The translations under genes were made by a program, and so were the position numbers. 19,899 nucleotides of DNA, from assembly GCA_027061945.1 (NCBI GenBank), contig JAMOVR010000354.1, positions 1 to 19,899 on the forward strand. Direction: 5' to 3'. Source of the stretch: Candidatus Heimdallarchaeota archaeon. GTDB lineage: Archaea; Asgardarchaeota; Heimdallarchaeia; Heimdallarchaeales; JAJRWK01. Below, in pieces: positions 234 to 19,899 of this stretch (its first letter is position 1; every line of letters starts with the position of its first letter). The notes under the pieces were generated by a model. It made no database searches, was not told the origin of the DNA, and was given only the letters and a program-made list of their open reading frames with translations.

Positions 234-3200
234 TTGCTTAAAGTGGAATATGAAACACTTTGTCCTGTATGTGGTGCTACATTAACTTTGGAAGAAATTA
301 ACAAACATATTTGTTTCCAGAAAAAAATTCCTTTATCCAAGCCATTTGAATTACATGAACTAAATACCTTTGAAACTCTGTTTAAGGACTGCGTTGGGGA
401 GCCCCGAAGTATTCAAAAGTTATGGATGAAACGTCTATTGAGAGGTGAAAGCTTCGCAGTAACTGCTCCTACCGGCATAGGAAAAACTAGGTTTGGACTA
501 GTCGCATCTCTTTTCTTTAGTTTAAAAGAAAAAAGAAGCTATTTATTATTCCCAACATCTCTTCTGGTAAAGCAAGCATATGATCTTCTTTCAAAATTTG
601 TTTCGATTATAGAAAAAAAGCATCAAAAAAAACCGAAAATTGTAGCCTACTTTTCAGACATGAAAGAAAAAGAAAAAGAGTTGGTTAAGAAATCAATTAG
701 TAATGGAGAATTTGATATTTTATTGACTACAACACAGTTCTTAACTAAAAATTTCTCTGTAGTAAGGAATAATACTATGGATTTTATTTTTGTTGATGAT
801 GTCGATTCATTATTAAAGAACTCAAGAAACGTAGAAAAAATTTTGAATCTACTTGGTTTCCGCAGGATTAATGATAAATGGTCTGGCGAGGCTAGGGGAT
901 CATTAATGGTTGCTTCTGCAACGGCAAAACCTGGAAAGTCTACAATGTTATTCAAAGAACTATTAGGTTTTGACGTTGGTGGTTCAAGTTTTGTCTTAAG
1001 AGATGTTTATGATATAATTTTAAGGAAAAAAGAGGTGAATTCATTAGAAGAAATCCTTAAAAAGATGGAAACCGGTGGTATCATTTATACTGAAAATACT
1101 GATATTGCTGAAAAATTATATGAAAAATTATCGAAAAAAGGATATAAGATTGGGTTGGTTACTGCCCAAGACAAACGTCCTTTTGAAGATTTTAAAAATA
1201 AAGATCTCGATTTTTTGATAGGTACCGCTCATTATTATGGAAGCTTAATAAGAGGCTTGGATCTGCCAGAAATAATAAAATTCGTGGTATTTTATGGTAT
1301 ACCCTCGTTTAAGGTATCAATAGATAAAATTCCTCTTGGCTTCCTAAAACAACTAATTCTGAAGTTTTATGATGAAGAATCGATGTCTGAATTTAGAGAA
1401 TTACTTAATTGGAAAACTGAAGAAGATATTGATCAAGAACTTTTAAATAAGGCTCAAGAAAGAGTAAAGTCATTATTACTTTCTAAACAAAATTATTTAA
1501 ATGATATTTCAATAATTGGAGACACCATTGTTTTTCCAGATCTAAAAACATACATACAAGGTAGTGGCCGGACATCTAGATTAATGCCTTGGGGTTTAAC
1601 TAAGGGCGCATCATTTGTTATGGAGGACAATGAATCGATCATTTCTGCTTTTATTAACAAAGCAGGTTATTATGGTATTGATTTTCAAGAATATCATGAA
1701 GTAGACTTAGAATTAATTAAAAAAGAGTTATATGTTTCTAGGACCCCAAAATTAGAAAAAACAGACATTATTAAGCCAGCGTTATTCATAGTTGAAAGTC
1801 CTACTAAAGCAAAACACATTGCCCATTATTTTGGAAGACCTAGTATAAAGAAAAAAGGCAGTATAATAGCTTATGAGGTTTCTAATGAAAAATATTTGTT
1901 AATGGTAACTGCAAGCTTAGGACATGTTACGGATTTAATAATTGGGAAGGGCTATCATGGAATTAAAATAACAGATAAAAAGGAGTTTATTCCAATTTAT
2001 TCCCCAATTTACAAATGCGCACAATGTGGATATCAAATTAGCATGGAGATTGATAAATGTCCTAAGTGTGGAAGCGAAGAGATTATTTCTTCAAAAGAAA
2101 GAATTAATGATTTACGTTCTGTTGCTTATGAAACTGAGTTAGTAATCATTGGAACGGATCCTGATTCTGAAGGAGAAAAGATTGCATGGGACCTACAGAA
2201 TTTATTGAGTCCTATTGCCAAAGTAACTCGTGCGGAGTTTCATGAAGTCACTCCTAAAGCAATTAGAACTGCCTTATCAAGCTTACGAAGTATTGACCTT
2301 GATAGGGTGGAAGCACAAGTAGTTCGTAGGATTGAAGATCGGTGGATTGGTTTTATTCTTTCTCAGCACCTGCAAGAACGCTTTAATAATAAAACATTAG
2401 CTGCTGGTAGAGTTCAAACACCCGTATTAGGGTGGATAATAAAACAAGAACAAAAATCTCGAGAGAAAATAAGAATATACGTAATAAAAGATTTTGATAT
2501 AGAATTAAAACCAATAACAGAAGATAATATCAAAGAGAGCGTTATTTTAGAGCTTGAGATCAAAGAAGTTAAAACTGAAGAAACGACTTATTCTCCTTTG
2601 CCTCCATTTACTACAGATGTAATGTTACAAGCTGCCACTCAAAAATTGGGTTTTTCAACAGCAAAAACAATGGACTTAGCCCAAAAACTGTTTGAGGCTG
2701 GATTAATTACTTATCATAGAACAGATTCTACTCATGTTAGTGATAATGGAATAAAATTAGCAAAAGCATTTTTGAAAGAAGATTTTGAAGGTCGTAGTTG
2801 GGGTGCCGCAGGAACTCATGAATGTATAAGGCCCACTAAACCTTATCCATTAACTGTTATAAGACAATTAATAAAAGAAGGCATTGTGCCAGGTGAAGAA
2901 ATCAATGAAGAGCATTTAGCGCTTTATGATTTGATTTTCCGTAGATTTATGGCAAGTCAAGCAAAAAAATTCATTGTAATAGAAAAGCACTATATTATTG
3001 AATTTGAATGGGGATCAGCAAAACAAAAAATTAATAAAAAAATTGCAGTCCATGCAGAAGGTCGTGCCCATGAATTATATCCATACGTAAAAATAAGAAA
3101 AGAGTTGCCCGTAGGTAAAGTTCGTAAAATTGCAAAGCTAGAATCTAAGCCACTAGCTATTCCTTTTAACGAGGCAGAGATTGTTAATCTAATGAAACAA

Positions 3201-3461
3201 AGGGGTATTGGCAGACCATCCACTTATGCCATAATAATTGATAAACTTTTCCAGAAAAATTATATTTTCAAGAAAAATAACCGGCTCTTTAGCACTAAAC
3301 TAGGAAAACAAATCTATGAATACTTAGAACAAAACTTTAGTCATCTGATCTCAGAAGAAAGAACCAGAAAATTAATGGAAAAAATGGATCTGGTTGAAAA
3401 AGGACAAGTGGAACCTGAGAGACTAATAGAAGAAATTTATCAAGAGACAAAAGAGATATAG
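234..3461 (+). CDS. rgy: Reverse gyrase (SF2 helicase-like domain fused to type IA topoisomerase)
   Basis: N-terminal CPVC zinc motif. Helicase motifs: Walker A APTGIGKT, motif II FVDDVD, SAT, QGSGRTSRL. TOPRIM motifs: IVESPTKA and GTDPDSEGE. Inserted zinc ribbon CAQCG..CPKCG. Catalytic-Tyr motif ITYHRTDS. TTG start at 234 lies 6 nt after AGGGTGA (221-227); GTG at 243 is an alternative start. Confidence 0.95.
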   Translation: MLKVEYETLCPVCGATLTLEEINKHICFQKKIPLSKPFELHELNTFETLFKDCVGEPRSIQKLWMKRLLRGESFAVTAPTGIGKTRFGLVASLFFSLKEKRSYLLFPTSLLVKQAYDLLSKFVSIIEKKHQKKPKIVAYFSDMKEKEKELVKKSISNGEFDILLTTTQFLTKNFSVVRNNTMDFIFVDDVDSLLKNSRNVEKILNLLGFRRINDKWSGEARGSLMVASATAKPGKSTMLFKELLGFDVGGSSFVLRDVYDIILRKKEVNSLEEILKKMETGGIIYTENTDIAEKLYEKLSKKGYKIGLVTAQDKRPFEDFKNKDLDFLIGTAHYYGSLIRGLDLPEIIKFVVFYGIPSFKVSIDKIPLGFLKQLILKFYDEESMSEFRELLNWKTEEDIDQELLNKAQERVKSLLLSKQNYLNDISIIGDTIVFPDLKTYIQGSGRTSRLMPWGLTKGASFVMEDNESIISAFINKAGYYGIDFQEYHEVDLELIKKELYVSRTPKLEKTDIIKPALFIVESPTKAKHIAHYFGRPSIKKKGSIIAYEVSNEKYLLMVTASLGHVTDLIIGKGYHGIKITDKKEFIPIYSPIYKCAQCGYQISMEIDKCPKCGSEEIISSKERINDLRSVAYETELVIIGTDPDSEGEKIAWDLQNLLSPIAKVTRAEFHEVTPKAIRTALSSLRSIDLDRVEAQVVRRIEDRWIGFILSQHLQERFNNKTLAAGRVQTPVLGWIIKQEQKSREKIRIYVIKDFDIELKPITEDNIKESVILELEIKEVKTEETTYSPLPPFTTDVMLQAATQKLGFSTAKTMDLAQKLFEAGLITYHRTDSTHVSDNGIKLAKAFLKEDFEGRSWGAAGTHECIRPTKPYPLTVIRQLIKEGIVPGEEINEEHLALYDLIFRRFMASQAKKFIVIEKHYIIEFEWGSAKQKINKKIAVHAEGRAHELYPYVKIRKELPVGKVRKIAKLESKPLAIPFNEAEIVNLMKQRGIGRPSTYAIIIDKLFQKNYIFKKNNRLFSTKLGKQIYEYLEQNFSHLISEERTRKLMEKMDLVEKGQVEPERLIEEIYQETKEI

Positions 3462-9088: not shown

Positions 9089-9544
9089 ATGGCAAAAGAA
9101 AGAACTTTCGTAATGATTAAACCAGATGCTGTTCAAAGAGGATTAGTCGGAGAAATCATTAAAAGAATTGAATCCGCAGGATTAAAGATTGTTGCTATGA
9201 AATTTATCAAGCCTTCTTTAGAACAAGCAAAAAAGCATTATGCTATTCATGAGGGAAAATCATTTTATGACAAGTTAATTACGTTTATCACTTCTGGTCC
9301 TGCTGTTCCTATGGTTGTCGAAGGAGAAAATGCAATTAATAGGGTTCGTCAACTTATGGGGAAAACAAATCCTTTAGATGCAGACGTTGGGACTATTCGT
9401 GCCGATCTTGCGATGGATATTGGAAGGAACTTAATTCATGGAGCAGATTCCCTTGAAAATGCAAAATATGAGATTGGTATTTATTTCACTGAAGAAGAAC
9501 TTGTTGACTGGGAGTGGATTCTAGAGCAATGGATTTATGAGTAA
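9089..9544 (+). CDS. ndk: Nucleoside diphosphate kinase
   Basis: ERTFVMIKPDAVQRGLVGEII and the active-site region NLIHGADS; 151 aa. SD GGGTGAT (9077-9083) lies 5 nt upstream. Confidence 0.95.
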   Translation: MAKERTFVMIKPDAVQRGLVGEIIKRIESAGLKIVAMKFIKPSLEQAKKHYAIHEGKSFYDKLITFITSGPAVPMVVEGENAINRVRQLMGKTNPLDADVGTIRADLAMDIGRNLIHGADSLENAKYEIGIYFTEEELVDWEWILEQWIYE

Positions 9545-9620
9545 TCCATGCAATTACAGTTTAAAACAATAAAAATAACAACAAATTAAAATAATTGTGA
9601 ATTGTTTCTCGCTTTCGTAT

Positions 9621-9793
9621 GGGCCTCTCTTACCGTGCGTTCACGGTGTTGGAGGACTCGCGCACGGAACAATTTCACTAAGGCCTCTGCTTCAGAGGTG
9701 TAATCAACAAACACATGTATGACATCCTGGAAAAAATTATCGGCTTTCATCCCTATCTCACCGTGTAGATGGAAAGGGAATTGATGCCGATAA
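9621..9793. ncRNA. GC-rich structured element (candidate small RNA or infB leader), family not recognised
   Basis: A GC-rich island in an AT-rich spacer. Helices: 9633-9639/9661-9667 (7 bp), 9621-9626/9681-9686, 9684-9689/9693-9698, and a composite hairpin 9737-9744/9786-9793 with inner stems 9750-9754/9775-9779 and 9755-9758/9767-9770. Strand not determined. Confidence 0.4.
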
Positions 9794-9853
9794 AGTTAAA
9801 AAAGAAAATATTATTGCTTTGATTATTTATTAAATAAATTCGGGTGAAAAACC

Positions 9854-11680
9854 ATGTCCGCTTCGTCCCCAGTTAAAAAAGAAGAAATTAAACGTATAAG
9901 ATCTCCAATCGCCGTAGTATTGGGTCATGTTGATAGTGGTAAAACCTCTCTACTCGACTCTGTAAGAGGTACAGCAGTTCAAGCACGCGAGGCTGGTGGA
10001 ATTACCCAACACGTAGGTGCGTCATTCTTCCCAGCAGACACAATAATTAAAGCAGCAGAGCCCGTCGCTAAAGCTTTAAACATTAAAATAGAGTTAAAAA
10101 TTCCAGGATTACTAATAATTGATACACCTGGACACGCTGCTTTTGTCAACTTACGTGCAAGGGGGGCGAGTGTCGCGGACATTGCTATTCTTGTAGTAGA
10201 CGCCACAAGAGGATTTCAAGCGCAAACATACGAATCAATAGACATATTAAAACAAAGAAGGACTCCCTTTATTGTAGCTTTGAATAAAATAGATCGACTT
10301 CCTGGTTGGAAACCTAATAAAGGGGAATCATTTCTTTCCACTATTAAAAAGCAAAATAAAAGAACCCAGCAGGAATTAGATAACAAGATTTATGAAGTAC
10401 AGGGTGAGCTCTCTTCTTTAGGATTTCCTGCTGAGAGATATGATAAAATAAGAGATTATACCAAAGCTGTAGCAATAGTACCTGTAAGTGCACATACAAA
10501 GGAAGGGATACCTGATCTTTTCCTAATACTCTCAGGGATTACTCAGCAGTACATGATGAAAAGACTACGTTATAGTGAAGGGCCTGGAAAAGGCGTTGTA
10601 CTTGAAGTCCGAGAAGAAGAAGGAATGGGAACTACTTTAGATATTGTTCTTTATGATGGAGTTATCAAAAAAGATGATACTGTTGTTTTTGCTACTAAAC
10701 AAGGAGCTAAATCTAGTAAAGTAAAGGCGTTACTGCTTCCTAAACCCTTAGATGAAATGAGAGATCCTCGTGATAAGTTCTCAAGAGTGAATGAGATTTA
10801 TGCTTCTGCGGGTGTGAAATTATTATTACAAGAACCAGAAGGAGCGTTAGCTGGTGCACCTATTTTTGTGGCATTATCAAAGAAAGAAGAAGAAAAACTA
10901 CGAAAAGAAATTGAAGAAGAGTTAAGAGCATTGAGAATTGACACACAGGATGAAGGTATAATTCTTAAAGCAGACACACTAGGCTCTCTCGAGGCATTGG
11001 TTGGTATGCTGCGGAGCCATGGGATACCAATAAGAAAAGCTGATGTGGGTGATATATCTAAAAGAGATGTTATGGAAGCATTAATTACAGCAGAAAAAGT
11101 TCCGCAGTATGGTGCGATAATAGGCTTTAATGTTGGTTTCCAAGGTGACGCGGAAGAAGAAGCGTACTTACAAGGATTGCCCGTATTTCTTGGCAATATA
11201 ATTTACCACGTAATAGATGAGTATTTAGCGTGGAAGGCGGAGATTGAAGAAAAAGAAAAAAGTCAAGTACTGGCAGACTTACAACGACCTGGAAAAATCA
11301 GGATTTTACCGAACTATGTTTTTAGAATTAGTAAACCTGCCGTTGTTGGTGTTGAAGTATTAGAAGGAATGATAACGCCTAAGAATATTCTCATAAGAGA
11401 AGATAATAAAAGAGTAGGAACAATTCAGCAAATTCAAGAAAACCGACAAAATATTGATAAGGCAACAAAAGGAAAACAAGTAGCAATCAGTATAAAAGGG
11501 CCTACTGTGGGAAGGCAAATCAAAGAGGATATGATACTATACACGGATATTAGGGGAAGAGATGCTAGATTATTAATGACAAAATATAAGGACCAGTTAG
11601 AACCAGGTGAATATGAACTTTTAGAAGAGATAGTTAAAATAAAACAGAGAGCAGGACATCGTTACTGGCCTTTTGCATAG
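9854..11680 (+). CDS. infB: Translation initiation factor aIF5B (IF-2 family GTPase)
   Basis: G-domain motifs GHVDSGKTSLLD, DTPGH and NKID; 608 aa with archaeal aIF5B architecture. SD GGGTGA (9842-9847) lies 6 nt upstream. Confidence 0.95.
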   Translation: MSASSPVKKEEIKRIRSPIAVVLGHVDSGKTSLLDSVRGTAVQAREAGGITQHVGASFFPADTIIKAAEPVAKALNIKIELKIPGLLIIDTPGHAAFVNLRARGASVADIAILVVDATRGFQAQTYESIDILKQRRTPFIVALNKIDRLPGWKPNKGESFLSTIKKQNKRTQQELDNKIYEVQGELSSLGFPAERYDKIRDYTKAVAIVPVSAHTKEGIPDLFLILSGITQQYMMKRLRYSEGPGKGVVLEVREEEGMGTTLDIVLYDGVIKKDDTVVFATKQGAKSSKVKALLLPKPLDEMRDPRDKFSRVNEIYASAGVKLLLQEPEGALAGAPIFVALSKKEEEKLRKEIEEELRALRIDTQDEGIILKADTLGSLEALVGMLRSHGIPIRKADVGDISKRDVMEALITAEKVPQYGAIIGFNVGFQGDAEEEAYLQGLPVFLGNIIYHVIDEYLAWKAEIEEKEKSQVLADLQRPGKIRILPNYVFRISKPAVVGVEVLEGMITPKNILIREDNKRVGTIQQIQENRQNIDKATKGKQVAISIKGPTVGRQIKEDMILYTDIRGRDARLLMTKYKDQLEPGEYELLEEIVKIKQRAGHRYWPFA

Positions 11681-11822: not shown

Positions 11823-12629
11823 ATGAAACATCCCTCTTATAATTCAAAAGACAGGAATGCAATTAGAAATTATTATTCTAATTGGAATTATGACTGTCAA
11901 GACATAGATTTACGTTTTAGAGGAATAAAAATCATGGGGCTAGTTAGAACAATAAAAAAAAGAAAGACTAAATGGCATATATCATGGTCATGGTTACAAA
12001 AAACAATCAATAAACGCAGAGTAAATAACAACAATATTGCTATTCATTTAAGACAATATATTAACACACGAAGATTTCCTCTAAGAGTATTCATGACTTC
12101 AGTAGAGTTCTTTGATCCTAGAGCTTTAGGAAAAAGAAGATTAGGTTATCCTAGAATACTTCGCTCAGGAATAGTCTCTTTTGAAGAAGATTCTTCATTA
12201 CAAAGCTCAATTCATACTGCTCTTATATTGTCAGATGTATTAAAAAACATGCAACATAAGTTCGTTTTTACAGGAAATAAAAGTATACACGTCTGGGTTT
12301 TAGACTTTAAGTGGGAAGAATGGGTCCCCAAAAAATATTTGGTTAGAAATTATTATAAAGCACACTTAAGAGAAGTCAGTGAATATTTAGCTCGAAAAAA
12401 TTTTTTCGAATGGGTTGCTGAAACGAGTGGGGTTAAGAACTTAGATCGTAGCACTACTACCGATACAAGAAGGGTTATCCCGGTGCTTGATACTTTAAAT
12501 GCATTGACATGGAGAAAAGTCATTGAACTTAACCGTAAGGAACTTGAACTAGATGATCCTAATTATATACAGGGAGTGGCGAATGTCCGCTCCCTAATAG
12601 GGGATGGACTGCCCAGACGGGCGGGATGA
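11823..12629 (+). CDS. Compact archaeo-eukaryotic primase small-subunit-like protein (PriS-like)
   Basis: AEP motifs in the right order: IRNYYSNW and FPLRVFMTSVEFFDP in the N-terminal region; motif I IVSFEEDSS (ExD in place of DxD); motif II FTGNKSIHVWV; motif III LDRSTTTDTRRVIPVLDTLN. The last ~19 codons run into a GC-rich RNA-like element, so the true 3' end is uncertain. Confidence 0.6.
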   Translation: MKHPSYNSKDRNAIRNYYSNWNYDCQDIDLRFRGIKIMGLVRTIKKRKTKWHISWSWLQKTINKRRVNNNNIAIHLRQYINTRRFPLRVFMTSVEFFDPRALGKRRLGYPRILRSGIVSFEEDSSLQSSIHTALILSDVLKNMQHKFVFTGNKSIHVWVLDFKWEEWVPKKYLVRNYYKAHLREVSEYLARKNFFEWVAETSGVKNLDRSTTTDTRRVIPVLDTLNALTWRKVIELNRKELELDDPNYIQGVANVRSLIGDGLPRRAG

Positions 12630-12760
12630 TCAGCCCTTGGGGGATATGAGAGGGATAGACTCCCGGAGCAAGATCCTCTTCCCCAATGGAAATGAAGCTC
12701 CGGGTAAAAAATTTTTATATATCTTATTTAAGTAAGGAGATCTGCTATTGTTGTATTCCA
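12572..12760 (+). ncRNA. RNase P RNA-like structured RNA (boundaries uncertain, may extend to ~13072)
   Basis: GGCGAAUGUCCGCUCCCUAAUAGGGGAUGG resembles CR-I (GAGGAAAGUCCGGGCUCCAUAGGGCAGGG). GAUAGACUCCCGGAGCAAGAUCC resembles the conserved GGUAAACUCCACCCGGAGCAAGGCC block. GGAGAUCUGCUAUUG resembles GUAGGCUGCUUGAG. A perfect 12-bp hairpin sits at 12753-12785. I did not find CR-IV/CR-V or the P4 3' strand. Confidence 0.4.
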
Positions 12761-12905
12761 ATCACATAAATCGTGATTGAATACTCTGTTTTAGCTTTAT
12801 TTTTGATTATTATCTCTACGTTGTCTATATTAATATTATAATTTCTCATTCCCAATCTACCTTTCCAGAAAGAAGGAAAGTTTTCTTCAAGAGCGTTTAA
12901 CTTTC

Positions 12906-12952
12906 TCGGCGGGAAATCCTCTCCCTTCCGCAAGGGAGGGAATGAAAGCCGA
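12906..12952 (+). ncRNA. GNRA-capped hairpin module with asymmetric internal loop (paralogue of hairpin 12662-12704)
   Basis: Outer stem UCGGC/GCCGA. Inner 8-bp stem 12922-12929/12934-12941 capped by GCAA. It shares AUCCUCUyCCC and GGrAAUGAArGC strings with the 12662-12704 hairpin. Confidence 0.4.
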
Positions 12953-12989
12953 AAACATCATATGTTTTTTTGTATATTTTTTTCTTGCA

Positions 12990-13072
12990 GGGCTGGGACG
13001 GCCCGTAGCGCCTGTGGAGAGAGTCTCCTCTGTGAAGCAGGAAGCCCCTAGCAAAAGCAAGGGGTAGCTCAC
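12990..13072 (+). ncRNA. GC-rich structured module (hairpins 12990-13004 and 13032-13072), possibly part of the same RNA as 12572-12760
   Basis: Stem GGGCU/GGCCC. Extended hairpin GUGA(A)GC-AGGAA-GCCCCUAGC-AAAA-GCAAGGGGU-A-GCUCAC. The minus-strand ORFs called here are low-complexity and implausible. Confidence 0.35.
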
Positions 13073-13111
13073 AAAAGAAGTATAGGTATATAGGTCACTT
13101 ATACATTTATA

Positions 13112-14368
13112 CTATATTTTTAGTCCTCTATTGATGATTAGCTCTCCTAAAATAAACACTCCAAGTATGTTTTGTTTGTTTTGAAGGATAGTAATGTCTT
13201 TTAATGGGTCTTCTTTTAGTATTAAAACATCAGCATCATATCCTTCATGTAAATATCCTGTTTTAGGAGCACGCGGGCCTAGCGTTAGTGGACCATTATA
13301 TGTAGAAGCATGAATCGCTTCTAATGGTGTCATTCCGATCTCAGTAAGATTCTCAAGTTCCTTTGCATTTTCACCCCATGGAACAAGAGAATCTGATCCC
13401 GAAGAATAAATATCTGTTCCCATAGCAATTTTAACTCCTTTTTTATATGCCAGTTTCATTCCATTCAAGTGATCTTTCATAACAACTTTCATCTTCTCAA
13501 TTACTTCTGGCTGAGCACCCATTTTAGGTCCTAACTCCATAAGCCTTCTAGTAATATAGATCGTGGGAACTAGAAAAGTTCCTCTCTCAATCATTAAGTC
13601 AATAATTTCCTCATTGATCCAAGTACCATGTTCAATGGAATGAACACCGGCCTCAACCGCTACTTTCATTCCAGCAGCACCATGTGCATGAGCCATTACA
13701 ATTCTATCTTTTGCCTTTGCTTCTTCAACAATTGCTTTTACTTCTTCATAAGTAAATTCCTGGTGATGAGGAGAATCTCTCTGACTCATTACACCACCAC
13801 TAGCCATTATCTTAATGTGATCGGCACCTGCCCTCAACTGCATTCTTACTGCTTTCTTTGCTTCCCAAGGCCCATCTACTATTCCCGACCCGAAAAACGG
13901 GTTCTGGAATGCTTTCAAAACATCTAACGGCACCATGTGCATGTCTGCATGCCCGCCGGTAGTGCCCAAAGGTGCACCTGGGGCAAAAACTCTTGGACCA
14001 ATCACAGAACCATCGTTAATCATGTATTTAAGATCTAAACCAATTCCACCAGCTTCTCTTACACCTGTAATTCCCGCTTCCACCGCGGTTTTCGCATCAT
14101 ACGTTACTCTCATTGCCATCTGTGTTGGTGGTGTTAATAGCCATTCTGAGGGATTAGCAGTTTTTACACCAAAGAAATGAGCATGTGTATCCCACATTCC
14201 GGGCATTACTGCCTTCTCATTAATAGTCACGTCCGCTTTAGGGGCATGTTCCGCTTCTCCAGCATAAACAATTTCACTTCCTGAAAAAACAAGTGCTCCA
14301 TTCTTTACTGGCCCGTCAAGTGAGCCATCTATTAAAACATCAGTTTCGATCTTGACTGTTTTTTCCAT
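13112..14368 (-). CDS. Metal-dependent amidohydrolase-superfamily protein (COG1228-like)
   Basis: HxH motif MWDTHAHFF, KIMASGG (carbamylated Lys position), AHAHG, IEHGT, GTDI, DADVLIL. I prefer ATG at 14368 (MEKTVK) over the TTG at 14374. Confidence 0.85.
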   Translation of the reverse strand: MEKTVKIETDVLIDGSLDGPVKNGALVFSGSEIVYAGEAEHAPKADVTINEKAVMPGMWDTHAHFFGVKTANPSEWLLTPPTQMAMRVTYDAKTAVEAGITGVREAGGIGLDLKYMINDGSVIGPRVFAPGAPLGTTGGHADMHMVPLDVLKAFQNPFFGSGIVDGPWEAKKAVRMQLRAGADHIKIMASGGVMSQRDSPHHQEFTYEEVKAIVEEAKAKDRIVMAHAHGAAGMKVAVEAGVHSIEHGTWINEEIIDLMIERGTFLVPTIYITRRLMELGPKMGAQPEVIEKMKVVMKDHLNGMKLAYKKGVKIAMGTDIYSSGSDSLVPWGENAKELENLTEIGMTPLEAIHASTYNGPLTLGPRAPKTGYLHEGYDADVLILKEDPLKDITILQNKQNILGVFILGELIINRGLKI

Positions 14369-14605
14369 AAACAATCAGATCTGGAATAACTTTATAATTC
14401 TTATTAGCATGTTGAAACGAAATAAACAGATATGTAATATCTTACCAAATTTTTACTAAATCATTTATTTATTTTTTTAATTTATGCTTGAAAAAAACAT
14501 TCTCGCAACCCATTAAAGATTTTCTTTTTAAAAATAATCTTTGCTTATTATGTGTTATGTTACACACCTTTACCCTTAATTATTAGTTTGAATATACATG
14601 AAACA

Positions 14606-17158: not shown

Positions 17159-17200
17159 AAGTGGTAATAATAAAAGTGATTTTGGTGAAAGCATTCTTAA

Positions 17201-17238
17201 TGAAGCAAGAAGCCCCTCGCAAAGCAAGCGATAGATCA
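17201..17238 (+). repeat. Degenerate copy of the 13033-13071 element
   Basis: TGAAGCAAGAAGCCCCTCGCAAAGCAAGCGATAGATCA versus TGAAGCAGGAAGCCCCTAGCAAAAGCAAGGGGTAGCTCA gives 33 of 39 positions by hand alignment. It lies between convergent genes. Confidence 0.5.
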
Positions 17239-17845: not shown

Positions 17846-18787
17846 TTAGAATGCGGAAACTTCAATATCTAATTGTTTTACAAGCTCTTTATACCGATTT
17901 CTTACAGTGACTTCTGTTACTGTAGCGGTTTCTGCTATTTCTCTTTGTGTCCGGCGTTCTCCCTCTAAAATACTAGCAATATAGAGTGCGGCAGCAGCTA
18001 ATCCTGTTGGATCTTTACCAACTGTAAGTCCTTTTGCTTTAGCTTTTGTTAACAAGTTTACTGCTCTTCTAGTAACTCTACCACTTAGACGTAGTTCGCT
18101 TGCAAATCTGACAATATAATCCACTGGATTTGGCGGTGGAATTTTTAGTTGTAATTCAGTGACTAATAATCTATATGAACGCCCTAATTCTTTTCTAGAT
18201 ACCCTTGAGTTTTGAGCGATTTCATCAATGGTCCTGGGGACACGCCTTAATCTAGCGGCAGCATATACTGCAGCAGCAATCATTGCTTCGATGCTCCTTC
18301 CCTTTATGAGTTGTCTTTCAATGGCTGACCTATAAATTAGTGCAGCAGTTTCTTTTACGTTTCTAGAAAGTCCTAGTTGGGAGGACAACCTATCCAATTC
18401 ACTCATCGCTAAAACTAAGTTTCTGTCCATTGAAGAAGAAACACGAGAACGAGTGTGCCACCTCTTTAAACGATACATTGTGGCTTTTTGTTGGGGGGAT
18501 AGTCTTTTACCATATACATCTCTGTCTTCCCATCCGATTTCTGTGCTGAGGCCTTTGTCGTGTAGACTTAACGTACTGGGTGACCCGACTCTTGCTCTCC
18601 TCCCTTTTTCTTCATTTGTGAACGCCCTCCATTCTGGTCCATCATCTATTAAGTGCTCTTCTATTACTGCTCCGCAATTCATACAGATTATCTCTCCTCG
18701 AGAGGGATCCGTAATGAATTTGGTTCCCCCACATTCTGGGCACTTTGGAAGGTTCTCTGATGTGGTTCTATTTACATTACTACTCAT
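17846..18787 (-). CDS. tfb: Transcription initiation factor TFB (TFIIB homologue)
   Basis: N-terminal zinc ribbon CPECGG..CMNCG, B-linker and two cyclin-fold repeats. I prefer ATG at 18787 (MSSNVN) because GGAGGA lies 5 nt upstream of it; the ORF track starts at 18802. Confidence 0.93.
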   Translation of the reverse strand: MSSNVNRTTSENLPKCPECGGTKFITDPSRGEIICMNCGAVIEEHLIDDGPEWRAFTNEEKGRRARVGSPSTLSLHDKGLSTEIGWEDRDVYGKRLSPQQKATMYRLKRWHTRSRVSSSMDRNLVLAMSELDRLSSQLGLSRNVKETAALIYRSAIERQLIKGRSIEAMIAAAVYAAARLRRVPRTIDEIAQNSRVSRKELGRSYRLLVTELQLKIPPPNPVDYIVRFASELRLSGRVTRRAVNLLTKAKAKGLTVGKDPTGLAAAALYIASILEGERRTQREIAETATVTEVTVRNRYKELVKQLDIEVSAF

Positions 18788-18832
18788 TTTAATCCTCCAC
18801 ATTCTTTTTATTACAAAGCGACAAAGAGTCTC

Positions 18833-19750: not shown

Positions 19751-19894
19751 TGCCGTCGTGACCGTAAGTCAAGCCGGCTGGCGTGCCAGTTGGTAGTGAG
19801 CTGTGCTCGCGAAGGCTGGCAAGTCCTGGCTCGCCAGGACCATAGCGGCCGGGTGATACCCGCTCCCATCCCGAACGCGGAAATCGCGACGGCA
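19751..19894 (+). rRNA. 5S rRNA gene with circularly permuted segment order
   Basis: 19833-19882 carries the 5S 5' part (GCCAGGAC CAUAGCGGCCGGG..ACCCGC UCCCAUCCCGAAC GCGGAA). 19768-19830 carries the 3' part (GUCAAGCCGGCUGGCG..GGUAGUGAGCUGUGCUCGCGAA..GUCCUGGC). The halves are in reversed order. The flanks 19751-19761/19884-19894 are complementary. Confidence 0.8.
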
Positions 19895-19899
19895 TTTTT
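19895..19899 (+). terminator. Oligo-T tract immediately after the 5S terminal helix (runs off the window)
   Basis: TTTTT directly follows 19894. Archaeal termination commonly occurs at oligo-T. Confidence 0.4.

Follow-up and report, generated by a model that had tools for sequence, protein, structure and literature searches.

The 500-nt GC-rich locus at 12572-13072 of the window (the whole 19,899-nt stretch of DNA analysed here) very probably juxtaposes two unrelated elements: a conserved structured RNA that runs over the end of a primase-like gene, and a miniature TnpB-type element. The host lineage comprises vent archaea, kin of the Heimdallarchaeales family JAJRWK01. A first-pass annotation had interpreted the locus as an RNA with RNase P-like blocks and offered, as a fallback, several adjacent small RNAs or a novel RNA. 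The fallback proved essentially right, with a structured RNA beside a TnpB derivative, whereas the RNase P headline fails, one reason being that the downstream modules are the ends of an insertion-sequence derivative. The layout it described was largely reproduced. GC content switches at 12572, from 32% in the preceding ORF to 59% in 12572-12704 (whole window, 34%), and the last 58 nt (∼19 codons) of the ORF 11823-12629, whose TGA (12627-12629) is within GGGAUGAUCAGCCC, lie beyond the switch. An AT-rich stretch (12705-12896, 27% GC) and two further GC-rich modules (∼12907-12951 and 12988-13072) follow. The locus and its neighbours are arranged as follows:

11823-12629, + strand: PriS-like (archaeo-eukaryotic primase) ORF, 268 aa; the last 58 nt, including the stop codon, lie inside the RNA
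12572-12704, + strand: structured RNA 'module A', 133 nt, from an alignment of five distinct orthologues
12705-12896, no strand: AT-rich spacer, specific to this window
12897-13072, + strand (orientation of the missing tnpB): gene-less miniature IS200/IS605-family (TnpB-type) element, 176 nt
13112-14374, - strand: convergent amidohydrolase gene (Pfam Amidohydro_1, E=3.8e-46), a neighbour outside both elements

Module A is a conserved structured RNA domain, lineage-specific and previously undescribed. Across the five orthologues, 93.6% of alignment cells were paired, and 13 pairs had changed on both sides, compared with at most four when the partners were slid. Of three measures of such both-sided change, two were reached by none of 500 shuffles and the third by one of 500. 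As the five sequences come from two subclades only, these compensatory changes represent few independent events. The many G-U pairs assign the RNA to the + strand. Searching ∼420 kb with model R1 returned exactly one copy per orthologous locus and zero elsewhere, and an Rfam search of 12572-12704 matched no family. The RNA core was 69-90% identical, compared with 56-74% for the ORF DNA, and its best conserved portion is the 75 nt 3′ of the stop codon. In all five loci the RNA overlaps the last 49-61 nt of the PriS-like ORF, and it stays joined to this ORF although the downstream neighbour differs. A T-run terminator 3′ of the RNA was present in the window and in locus L001 only, and absent from the L003 clade.

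The fold of the RNA comprises one hairpin at the 5′ end and, separated by a partly invariant linker, two of kink-turn-like form:

12572-12594, + strand: hairpin H1, GGGAGUGG paired with CCGCUCCC around a 7-nt loop, entirely within the ORF
12598-12639, + strand: kink-turn-like hairpin 1 (Kt1), in which UAGGGG (12598-12603) closes with CCCUUG (12634-12639)
12633-12659, + strand: linker, with invariant GCCCUUGGGGGA (12633-12644), a variable AU-rich 5-7 nt and invariant AGGGAUAGA (12651-12659)
12662-12704, + strand: kink-turn-like hairpin 2 (Kt2), with a closing helix of CCCGGAGC and GCUCCGGG

The pairing of H1 is retained despite an identity of 35-48% between clades (83% within the L003 clade), with compensatory changes in four of nine pairs and a loop that reads YGAAYNN in four of the five sequences. 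Kt1 has two additional pairs (12605-6 with 12631-2) and a C-stem of CUGCCC/GGGCGG (12609-12614/12619-12624). Its n-strand G12607 A12608, its bulge G A U (12625-12627) and its b-strand G12628 A12629 give the tandem pairs G12628.A12608 and A12629.G12607; GGA and GAUGA are invariant in all five sequences, and pairs 40/67 (U-A to C-G) and 47/56 (C-G to U-A) covary. In Kt2, the C-stem UCC/GGA (12674-6/12688-90) carries an 11-nt loop with an invariant CCCC, and the n-strand G12672 A12673, the bulge AAU (12691-3) and the b-strand G12694 A12695 give G12694.A12673 and A12695.G12672. Here GA and AUGA are invariant, and covariation affects four of nine closing-helix pairs and three of four C-stem pairs, as exemplified by the change from UCC/GGA to CUGC/GCGG.

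Both hairpins thus combine a C-stem, a 3-nt bulge ending in U and tandem sheared G.A/A.G pairs, and in both the GA dinucleotides (all four constant in 5/5 sequences) sit beside covarying helices, the C-stems and closing helices showing one to four compensatory pairs apiece. Neither kink-turn is fully standard: each has one additional base left unpaired next to the G.A pairs, at position 3b in Kt1 and as an A of the n strand in Kt2. The asymmetric A/G-rich internal loop on which the first-pass annotation had based its kink-turn-like guess for 12662-12704 was seen again, with agreement from four orthologues, and its proposal of L7Ae sites appears essentially right for the whole of 12572-12704, in that the sequence signature predicts L7Ae binding. 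A pseudoknot between loop and linker is possible: G12640-A12644 could pair with loop nucleotides U12680-C12684, a pairing that covariation neither supports nor refutes because its four G-C pairs are invariant. GGGG (12600-3) and GGGA (12652-5) are rival partners.

The gene over which the RNA extends encodes a rare protein, found in only five clusters among 5.8 billion proteins. The top match of its AlphaFold model (pLDDT 76.7) was Sulfolobus solfataricus PriS (1zt2_A, E=5e-7), with other archaeo-eukaryotic primases also matching; an NCBIfam search gave weak PriS matches, and the motifs ExD, GNKSIH and D..RR.IP...N are invariant. All five orthologous loci share the order ndk-infB-ORF, and the more distant homologues L007 and L008 are without the RNA. 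The eight C-terminal residues of the protein are modelled at pLDDT <50. Protein conservation across 12572-12629, which had been named beforehand as evidence against an RNA, was not seen; instead, the two clades cross this region in different phases. The invariant TAGGGG is read in phase 1 in three loci and in phase 2 in two, yielding unrelated C-terminal peptides, IGxGLxxWxG* in the window, L001 and L010 and NRGRTVQ* in L003 and L013. That one conserved sequence is crossed in two phases indicates that conservation acts on the RNA and, if the RNA is functional, shows how selection at the RNA level can overwrite an ORF tail. In three of the five loci the stop codon is the UGA of Kt1 itself, and in all five it lies within the kink-turn or its hairpin loop.

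One could instead suppose that 12572-12629 is conserved as a C-terminal peptide and that the remainder is a GC-rich terminator-like stem with no specific function. The shared ending IG(D/G)GL..W.G* of the window, L001 and L010 is in line with this, as is the terminal RLPDWV of the distant homologue P0005, which is similar to GLPSWVG, so that some of the overlap may be coding sequence inherited from an ancestor. As an account of the whole RNA, the peptide explanation is extremely unlikely. L003 and L013 use another phase over the same nucleotides, and the L003 protein occurs on four contigs from different samples or assemblies; moreover, the best conserved part lies beyond the stop codon, and every helix shows compensatory changes. 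Archaeal termination uses T-runs and is not known to use such structures.

Downstream of module A, the window departs from its relatives. The spacer is missing from every orthologous locus, and no homologue of it was found in any locus retrieved. Its hairpin at 12753-12785, previously described as perfect, is an inverted repeat of 6+6 bp with one C bulged, and a second, terminator-like hairpin (12861-12880) is followed by a T-run. In the orthologous loci, a methyltransferase gene in convergent orientation follows the RNA within a few tens of nt, and the called ORFs are ∼100-120 nt apart.

The remaining GC-rich sequence, 12897-13072, is an ORF-less TnpB derivative inserted into the intergenic region. 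With an nhmmer profile of the unit, the window scored 205.7 bits, and at least 10 near-identical copies were found in metagenome Ga0256835; the profile had 89 matches in 588 kb. Ten full ORF-less units had a mean column identity of 88%, and their neighbours differed (EamA, acyl-CoA dehydrogenase, AMMECR1, AIM24, ABC transporter and NifU). The mini-element therefore occurs in multiple copies with sharp boundaries in unrelated contexts, and it has no terminal inverted repeats. In L043, L048, L062 and other loci, the two halves are separated by ∼1.1-1.2 kb; the ORFs enclosed in these three carry OrfB_IS605, HTH_OrfB_IS605 and Cas12f1-like TNB domains. Homologous ends thus enclose tnpB in other metagenomes, with right ends that can be aligned as far as GGGGUAGUUCAC. 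The window copy has no ORF within its 176 nt, which makes it an ORF-less derivative. Three parts can be distinguished:

12907-12951, + strand: left-end subterminal hairpin (module 12906-12952 of the first-pass annotation)
12953-12987, + strand: AT-rich linker with TATA-box-like motifs, corresponding to the probable tnpB promoter region of full-length elements
12988-13072, + strand: right end, an omega-RNA (reRNA)-like scaffold remnant ending in GGGGUAGCUCAC (formerly module 12990-13072)

The left-end hairpin is kept across 30 diverse copies, and for the pattern CGGCTTTCAT..GCCGANAAAGTT the window has two occurrences where zero are expected; the metagenome contigs have 76, whose modal span is 49 nt. 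A paralogy between 12662-12704 and 12906-12952, suggested earlier, turned out to be weak, as the score of 26 was reached by 9 of 1000 shuffles and other window sites scored equally or higher. In contrast, 12896-12951 is clearly related to 9741-9800 and to the ends of TnpB elements. The linker is probably promoter-like, with TATA(A/T)A keeping a fixed distance of 6-9 nt to the hairpin across diverse copies and TTTATATAG on the tnpB strand. The right end aligns with its counterparts in full-length elements; these counterparts overlap the final ∼105 nt of tnpB in the sense orientation. The G-U pairs of the right end fall on the + strand (columns 10/16, 34/90 and 97/132). Rfam gave a sub-threshold RAGATH-18 match at 13011-13043 (+ strand; 26.7 bits, gathering score 44.9), and the full-length elements had no match at E≤0.1. 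Like IS200/IS605 TnpB elements and their omega-RNAs (reRNA/sotRNA; PMC12558985), the mini-element has subterminal hairpins at both ends and no terminal inverted repeats; its right end overlaps the 3′ end of tnpB in full-length relatives, and the scaffold stops exactly at the element boundary. It differs in having lost tnpB and ∼35 nt of scaffold. An omega-RNA role is suggested by position only; haloarchaeal sotRNA families of Rfam did not match, and RAGATH-18 matched only weakly.

What kind of RNA, then, is module A? No test of RNase P identity supported an atypical, expanded or rearranged RNase P RNA. The three RNase P-like strings on which that proposal rested are literally there (12578-12603, 12654-12676 and 12737-12751), and such words are no commoner than chance, the CR-I word occurring with ≤3 mismatches at 47 sites in the window where 41.5 were expected. 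The 'CR-I' string spans a hairpin's loop and 3′ arm, the orthologues do not share the sequence of that hairpin, and the 'P15' string falls in the spacer that they do not have. Since none of the orthologous loci has the 'P15' block or either downstream module, these do not form one essential RNA with 12572-12704. The Rfam models RNaseP_arch, RNaseP-T, RNaseP_bact_a/b and RNaseP_nuc were applied, at the gathering score and at E≤10, to the whole window, to 12400-13200, to 12565-12712 (148 nt, laxest filters) and to the four orthologous loci, and there was no match at E≤10, that is, no significant model hit, an outcome that had been listed in advance, together with a canonical RNase P RNA elsewhere in the genome, as counting against RNase P. 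The best CR-I site in the RNA (GAGGAAAGUCC, P4 5′ strand) is 12578-12588, with 3 of 11 positions mismatched, and CR-V (ACANAANNCGGNUUA, P4 3′ strand) had no site at ≤3 mismatches within 12572-12704. No long-range P4 was evident, as CCCGGAGC pairs locally with GCUCCGGG, with covariation. Local alignment to Escherichia coli rnpB (M1 RNA), a bacterial reference, scored 18-22, compared with shuffle means of 17.7-19.1, and was equalled or exceeded by 40 to 207 of 300 shuffles; model R1 did not match rnpB.

An RNase P RNA that has been drastically reduced and/or circularly permuted is therefore, in our view, highly unlikely as the identity of 12572-12704. In one such mapping, H1 would be a P5 stub, AAAUA would be J5/15, the Kt1 hairpin P15-P16, AGGGAUAGAYU a CR-V-like strand, and CCCGGAGC/GCUCCGGG a loop-closed P4. 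A few short words are indeed shared with RNase P RNAs, among them CCCGGAGC, and AAAUAGGGG and CCCGGAGCAAG occur verbatim in M1 RNA; yet two readers assigned the same words to different helices, and we regard the resemblance as loose. Archaeal RNase P RNAs are likewise GC-rich and contain L7Ae-type kink-turns, and the P16/P17 kink-turn of type T supports a pseudoknot (PMC13462272), just as a kink-turn hairpin here may place its loop for one. One nanoarchaeon has an RNase P RNA that is shorter still than type T and resisted folding into the typical secondary structure (PMC3655853). Permutations are invisible to covariance models, and the same contig carries a 5S gene, at the window end, that by eye does appear circularly permuted, as had been noted. 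Against this, CR-I, CR-IV and CR-V are absent from the 133-nt RNA or unconserved: the L003 clade does not keep the CR-I-like AA, the position of CR-IV varies, and a bulged U is missing. Heimdallarchaeia are not known to be without a normal RNase P RNA.

Kink-turns fused to an ORF end also recall C/D-box sRNAs. In Pyrobaculum, the C box of 23 such sRNAs provides the stop codon of an upstream ORF, and sense-overlapping sRNAs are thought to be co-transcribed and then excised (PMC6009581). In both systems the UGA of a RUGAUGA-type motif serves as the stop, the ORF tail tolerates dual use, and the RNA is probably co-transcribed and L7Ae-protected (PMC6009581). An aberrant, topologically permuted C/D-like guide, with Kt1 as D-(closed terminal stem)-C, Kt2 as D′-loop-C′ and linkers that guide Nop5-fibrillarin, would suit the way in which GA-type and RUGA-type strands are ordered and oriented; AUGAUCA agrees with a C box at six of seven positions in the window and L001, C/D sRNAs often overlap ORF ends and supply the stop codon, and sub-threshold Rfam matches include sR60 (10.5 bits, E=5.8) and the H/ACA-class Pyrobaculum PyrR210 (12.5 bits, E=3). 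We nevertheless judge it very unlikely. Neither D nor D′ is present as a CUGA box, the spacers measure at least ∼39 nt rather than 10-12 nt and largely paired with one another (helices 2 and 5), and the C-like box decays to AUGAGCG in the L003 clade. With 133 nt instead of ∼55, without canonical boxes or 10-12-nt guides, and with each kink-turn capping its own hairpin beside an extra 5′ hairpin and a possible pseudoknot, module A is not a member of the C/D family (C/D/C′/D′ boxes, 10-12-nt guides, ∼50-60 nt). Nor does it resemble H/ACA sRNAs, which have a pseudouridylation pocket, an upper-stem kink-turn and an ANA box 3′ of the lower stem: its kink-turns abut the closing helices, leaving no pocket, and the sequence 3′ of the last helix is not conserved (UAAAAA, CUCCCA, UAGCUA, CACUUA and CAAUUA).

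The explanation of the whole locus that we favour, with some reserve, is an L7Ae-RNP RNA domain co-transcribed with the primase-like mRNA, next to a TnpB mini-element. The RNA would be made by transcription of the PriS-like gene; co-transcription is most likely because no promoter is positioned to start the RNA upstream of H1. Transcription might start internally, 3′ of H1, from a TATA-like AT-rich motif (12562-12569), which would contradict simple co-transcription. L7Ae would then lock two sharp bends, one per kink-turn hairpin, so that the C-rich Kt2 loop could dock on the linker's invariant G-tract. The product would be a compact, nuclease-resistant RNP with the invariant purine-rich strands AAUAGGGG and AGGGAUAGA left exposed. 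The domain might remain on the mRNA as a 3′-terminal stabilising or L7Ae-sensing element, in which case the terminating ribosome must unfold it, as the stop codon is within Kt1. Alternatively, it might be trimmed out as a stable small RNP, like the archaeal C/D-box sRNAs that overlap ORF 3′ ends.

A purely cis-acting element of the primase-like mRNA, with no separate small RNA, seems to us somewhat unlikely. Abundant free L7Ae would bind both kink-turns and block or slow the ribosome at the Kt1 stop, or shield the 3′ end, coupling output of the primase-like protein to the free L7Ae pool. The strict linkage of RNA and ORF in all five loci and the position of every stop codon speak for such an arrangement. 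L7Ae is known to bind and regulate mRNAs through kink-turns, with translational control documented in Sulfolobus (PMC5539422), and the L7Ae-responsive mRNAs of Sulfolobus acidocaldarius (l7ae, nop5 and others; PMC5539422, PMC6298567) resemble module A in having an mRNA-embedded kink-turn that could couple expression to free L7Ae. These cases, however, involve single kink-turns in 5′ UTRs or near start codons (PMC5539422, PMC6298567), whereas module A has two at or after a stop codon, within a larger conserved fold. The invariant single-stranded blocks and the conserved loop also suggest a specific tertiary fold or partner beyond a roadblock, and conserved complementarity of the RNA to the 5′ region of its own gene was not found. 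Going further, one may speculate that the RNA is a subunit of a novel L7Ae RNP of thermophilic Heimdallarchaeia, working with the primase-like enzyme as scaffold, regulator or template-like cofactor, or else a topologically rearranged descendant of an RNA from a classical kink-turn RNP, of RNase P-like or C/D-like type, the 5S gene being permuted in this lineage as well; we regard this as improbable. If true, it would represent a gene-plus-cognate-RNA module in the archaea closest to eukaryotes.

If functional, as the covariation indicates, module A is a new structured RNA family for the Asgard archaea, whose non-coding RNA repertoire is almost unexplored. Two kink-turns over the stop codon of a replication-type gene are an unusual arrangement, and one in which a role of L7Ae-type proteins at the 3′ ends of mRNAs can be put to a concrete test; such a role, if true, would tie DNA-replication functions to the homeostasis of ribosomes and RNPs. 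When an AT-rich thermophile has a GC-rich RNA with short RNase P-like words, those words are by themselves no evidence for RNase P. The transposon remnant is ordinary, but it carries a caution: gene-less TnpB elements leave GC-rich omega-RNA-like islands that mimic novel RNA genes. Beyond both elements, the amidohydrolase gene has an orthologue in the L001 lineage that lies in a different context, without the GC-rich modules.

The abrupt change to GC-rich sequence at position 12572 was confirmed: the PriS-like ORF (11823–12629) up to that point has a GC content of 32%, versus 59% for 12572–12704, in a complete metagenomic contig of 19,899 bp with 34% GC overall. Further downstream, the GC content is 27% at 12705–12896 and 51% at 12897–13072. 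The TGA stop of the ORF does lie within GGGAUGAUCAGCCC, placing the last 58 nt of the ORF inside the GC-rich block, and every RNase P-like string quoted in the first-pass annotation is present in the sequence. The reverse gyrase gene (see list), together with GC-rich islands within AT-rich DNA, indicates a thermophilic host. The best named relatives of the neighbouring amidohydrolase are Kariarchaeaceae and Heimdallarchaeota proteins (56–57% identity). Among the orthologous loci, L010 belongs to contig JAJRWK010000177.1; JAJRWK01 is a GTDB family name in the order Heimdallarchaeales (PMC11193907). We infer that the host lineage is a deep-sea-vent relative of the Heimdallarchaeia family JAJRWK01.

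Archaeal genes of the contig
234–3461: reverse gyrase
9089–9544: nucleoside diphosphate kinase (ndk)
9854–11680: aIF5B/IF-2 (infB)
17846–18802: TFB
encoded in the window: geranylgeranyl-reductase-like enzyme

By gathering orthologous loci in three ways (via the ORF, the downstream methyltransferase and a DNA pattern), we recovered the GC-rich block in four additional distinct forms, represented by L001/L002, L003–L006, L010 and L013/L014. In all of these loci the block covers the last 49–61 nt of the ORF, and the gene context is ndk–infB–ORF wherever the contig extends far enough. Among the orthologues, the core of the block is 69–90% identical, compared with 56–74% for the ORF DNA. The ORF product itself is predicted to adopt a genuine archaeo-eukaryotic primase fold: the structures it matches best in the PDB are S. 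solfataricus PriS, human Pri1 and the polymerase domains of PrimPolC and LigD, and the catalytic-type AEP motifs are invariant in its homologues. Despite these motifs and the PriS-like predicted fold, the family has no Pfam match, and it is very small (a collection of 5.8 billion proteins yields five clusters at 90% identity).

The two clades read the shared block in different phases. In the window, L001 and L010, the invariant UAGGGG lies in codon phase 1, the C-terminus reads ...IG(D/G)GL..W.G* and the stop is the UGA of GGGAUGA, whereas in L003 and L013 it lies in phase 2, giving the C-terminus ...NRGRTVQ* with a UAG stop in a hairpin loop; four contigs of differing sample or assembly origin carry the gene for the L003 protein. 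Homologues of the ORF thus do not keep a conserved protein sequence through 12572–12629. Since the same conserved nucleotides yield two unrelated peptides, selection on this region acts on the RNA. The C-terminus of one distant homologue lacking the RNA, RLPDWV, is similar to GLPSWVG, and part of the overlap may have descended from coding sequence.

Comparison of the five sequences resolved three hairpins, H1 at the 5′ end and two kink-turn-like hairpins (Kt1 and Kt2), arranged as follows.

Features of the conserved RNA
12572–12594, + strand: H1, 35–48% identical between the two clades with pairing kept
12598–12603 with 12634–12639, + strand: closing helix of Kt1 (UAGGGG with CCCUUG), preceded by an AAUA junction (J)
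12609–12614 with 12619–12624, + strand: C-stem of Kt1, topped by a variable tetraloop
12625–12627, + strand: GAU bulge of Kt1, followed by sheared pairs G12628·A12608 and A12629·G12607 and then by two covarying pairs
between Kt1 and Kt2, + strand: linker in which a variable, AU-rich segment separates invariant GCCCUUGGGGGA from invariant AGGGAUAGA
12662–12669 with 12697–12704, + strand: closing helix of Kt2; its C-stem pairs 12674–12676 with 12688–12690
12672–12673 and 12694–12695, + strand: Kt2 core, with n-strand GA, bulge AAU and b-strand GA
Kt2 loop, + strand: 11 nt, with CCCC kept in all five sequences

Across the three hairpins and a candidate pseudoknot, 93.6% of cells were standard pairs, and 13 pairs had changed on both sides. 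When the 3′ partners were slid by 1–3 columns, 45–60% of cells stayed paired with no more than four both-side-changed pairs, and the both-side-change measures were reached by none of 500 shuffles for two of the three and by one of 500 for the third. The compensatory changes come from five sequences in two subclades, which means few independent events; the evidence for a conserved structure at 12572–12704 is good but not overwhelming. The RNA is assigned to the + strand because its frequent G–U pairs would be A–C mismatches on the opposite strand. All four GA dinucleotides are invariant and the adjacent stems covary, the signature expected of functional kink-turns; we call both hairpins kink-turn-like because each carries an extra unpaired base beside the G·A pairs. 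In the candidate pseudoknot, the loop CCCC(U) could pair with GGGG(A) at 12640–12644, and as every base involved is invariant, covariation speaks neither for nor against it.

A covariance model of the RNA (R1) found one full copy per orthologous locus (128–151 bits), or a partial copy where the contig stops within the RNA. It gave no match elsewhere in the window, nor in E. coli rnpB, the loci of distant ORF homologues or another 344 kb of archaeal metagenome loci. The search for distant copies gave one match in 185,579 species genomes and none in JGI metagenomes. A viral origin was discarded, as two IMG/VR pattern matches were at chance level and lacked the structure. We conclude that 12572–12704 holds a conserved kink-turn-like RNA that is truly novel, narrowly distributed and fused to the gene of a primase-like protein. 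In L007, the gene for a distant PriS-like homologue, P0004 (32% identity; longest contig of its cluster 1.13 Mb), has another kind of GC-rich hairpin (GGCGGAGGAAUCCCUCAUUUCCCC...AAUUCCUCCGUC) after it at 10733–10800, in place of the kink-turn RNA. On the JAJRWK01 contig, a tRNA gene (L010 4112–4184; Rfam 65.4 bits) lies ∼3.3 kb from the RNA.

One initial reading of the block was a very atypical RNase P RNA, expanded or rearranged, and a very reduced RNase P RNA is on record from a nanoarchaeon (PMC3655853). However, each defining feature that could be checked failed. Rfam RNase P models, at gathering thresholds or at E ≤ 10, gave no match in four slices of the window, including 12400–13200, nor anything in four orthologous loci. 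Words resembling CR-I, the conserved 5′ strand of RNase P helix P4, occur at chance frequency (GAGGAAAGUCC with up to three mismatches, 47 times in the window versus 41.5 expected), and the 3′ strand CR-V (ACANAANNCGGNUUA, up to three mismatches) has no match inside the RNA. The five orthologous RNAs also aligned to authentic E. coli rnpB (M1) no better than their own dinucleotide shuffles. A circularly permuted mapping, with H1 as P5, AAAUA as J5/15, Kt1 as P15–16 and the last hairpin as P4, was dropped: the L003 clade no longer has the key CR-I-like adenines, the bases at the CR-IV position vary, and the supposed P4 helix is a local covarying hairpin. The models, the CR-I and CR-V scans and the M1 shuffles thus leave the RNase P interpretation of 12572–13072 unsupported; we consider it very improbable for 12572–12704 and stop short of zero because of the nanoarchaeal precedent and because permutations are invisible to covariance models.

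Other identities fared no better. No Rfam family reached threshold on the RNA, and with the laxest filters the matches of recognisable type were limited to an H/ACA-class sRNA from Pyrobaculum (12.5 bits) and a C/D sRNA (10.5 bits), each scoring far under gathering. The RNA has neither the D boxes and short guides of a C/D sRNA nor the pocket and conserved ANA box of an H/ACA sRNA; ARAGORN found no tRNA, tmRNA or split tRNA, and the core motifs of hammerhead or other ribozymes are absent, with no Rfam match. A SECIS or selenocysteine read-through was rejected by eye, the next in-frame UGA being 22 codons on in the window, six in L001 and not conserved. Nor did we see a conserved slippery site for programmed frameshifting (the A-run is 2 to 5 long) or conserved flank pairing for bulge–helix–bulge excision or circularisation. 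No conserved complementarity was found between the RNA, its invariant purine-rich single strands included, and the 5′ region of its own gene.

As H1 lies inside the ORF and no promoter-like element is present at a suitable distance upstream of it (a comparison restricted in L001 by an N run at ∼3193–3202, masked or a scaffold gap, upstream of the primase-like ORF), the primase-like mRNA probably includes the RNA as its 3′ part. Many C/D sRNAs of Pyrobaculum share sense-strand sequence with ORF 3′ ends; in 23 cases the C box provides the stop codon, and the overlapping sRNAs are thought to be co-transcribed and then rescued from the decaying mRNA (PMC6009581). L7Ae, moreover, binds and regulates mRNAs via K-turns (PMC5539422). 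Building on these two precedents, we propose that L7Ae could bind both putative kink-turns and stabilise a compact fold. The RNA domain might then protect or regulate the mRNA 3′ end, where a terminating ribosome would need to open H1 and Kt1; alternatively, the domain might persist as a small RNP. That the purine-rich single strands of the RNA are invariant points to a specific partner.

Of the RNA locus originally proposed for 12572–13072, only 12572–12704 stands, as the novel RNA; the rest is a spacer followed by a transposon remnant. The stretch 12705–13072 is absent from every orthologous locus, and the downstream modules are likewise missing from the amidohydrolase neighbourhood in relatives. 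The left hairpin (12906–12952), presented earlier as a paralogue of 12662–12704, shows a marginal, weak and non-specific likeness. Its motif CGGCTTTCAT...GCCGANAAAGTT (12896–12951, minus strand) recurs at 9741–9800 (two matches in the window versus none expected) and occurs 76 times in JGI metagenome contigs, mostly with a 49-nt span. In metagenome Ga0256835, at least 10 contigs carry the whole 157–177-nt unit (13072 down to 12897) with a mean column identity of 88%, sharp boundaries and unrelated neighbour genes. A profile of the unit gave 89 matches in 588 kb, and at several loci its two halves flanked an opposite-strand ORF, with ∼1.1–1.2 kb between them. All three enclosed ORFs scanned (L043, L048 and L062) had OrfB_IS605, HTH_OrfB_IS605 and Cas12f1-like TNB domains and are TnpB. 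In tnpB orientation, which is the + strand of the window, the order is as follows.

Features of the mini-element
12907–12951, + strand: left-end hairpin
after the left-end hairpin, + strand: TATA-like segment (TTTATATAG in diverse copies)
next in full-length order, + strand: tnpB, missing from the window copy
to 13061–13072, + strand: right end, stopping at GGGGUAG(U/C)UCAC and overlapping the tnpB 3′ end in full-length elements

Because homologous ends flank tnpB, 12897–13072 is an ORF-less miniature IS200/IS605-type element, an ordinary transposon remnant. The right-end alignment has conserved helices with G–U pairs on the + strand, in the same position and polarity as TnpB omega-RNAs (PMC12558985); a RAGATH-18 match at 13011–13043 is sub-threshold (26.7 versus 44.9 bits) and serves as a lead only. 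With the tnpB linkage, readings of the downstream modules as H/ACA or C/D sRNAs, replication-origin boxes or a mobile promoter were dropped, and the minus-strand small ORFs 12745–12933 and 12887–13072, which are low-complexity and overlap the IS ends, were not treated as genes.

Related copies occur elsewhere in the window. A second, diverged ORF-less TnpB mini-element lies at ∼9600–9800 between ndk and infB, with a left-end-type hairpin at 9741–9800 and a GC-rich hairpin at 9616–9673; its tnpB orientation would be minus. As the ndk–infB spacer of L001 is only ∼40 nt, this copy has inserted into a conserved gene pair. Just past the YdjM-like gene, a lone fragment at 17180–17238 is similar to the omega-RNA-like right end of the element family (nhmmer E = 9.4e-5; 23-nt BLAST match). 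Several Ga0256835 contigs, including L025, L036 and L069, have between two and four mini-elements, complete or partial, within a few kb, so the family is highly repeated in the AT-rich archaeal genomes of this metagenome.

At the contig end, the 5S rRNA gene (19751–19899) looks circularly permuted. Its 3′ part (GUAAGUCAAGCCGGCUGGCGU...GGCAAGUCCUGGC, 19765–19831) precedes its 5′ part (CCAGGACCAUAGCGG...CCCGAACGCGGAA, from 19835) with a short joining loop, and the Rfam 5S model aligns at positions 1–68 only (27.7 bits versus a gathering score of 38). In a full-text literature search, reports of permuted 5S genes were found for organelles only (PMC4267664). Complementary UGCCGUCG and CGACGGCA on either side of the two halves could pair into a processing stem, and beyond the gene there is a T-run at the contig end.
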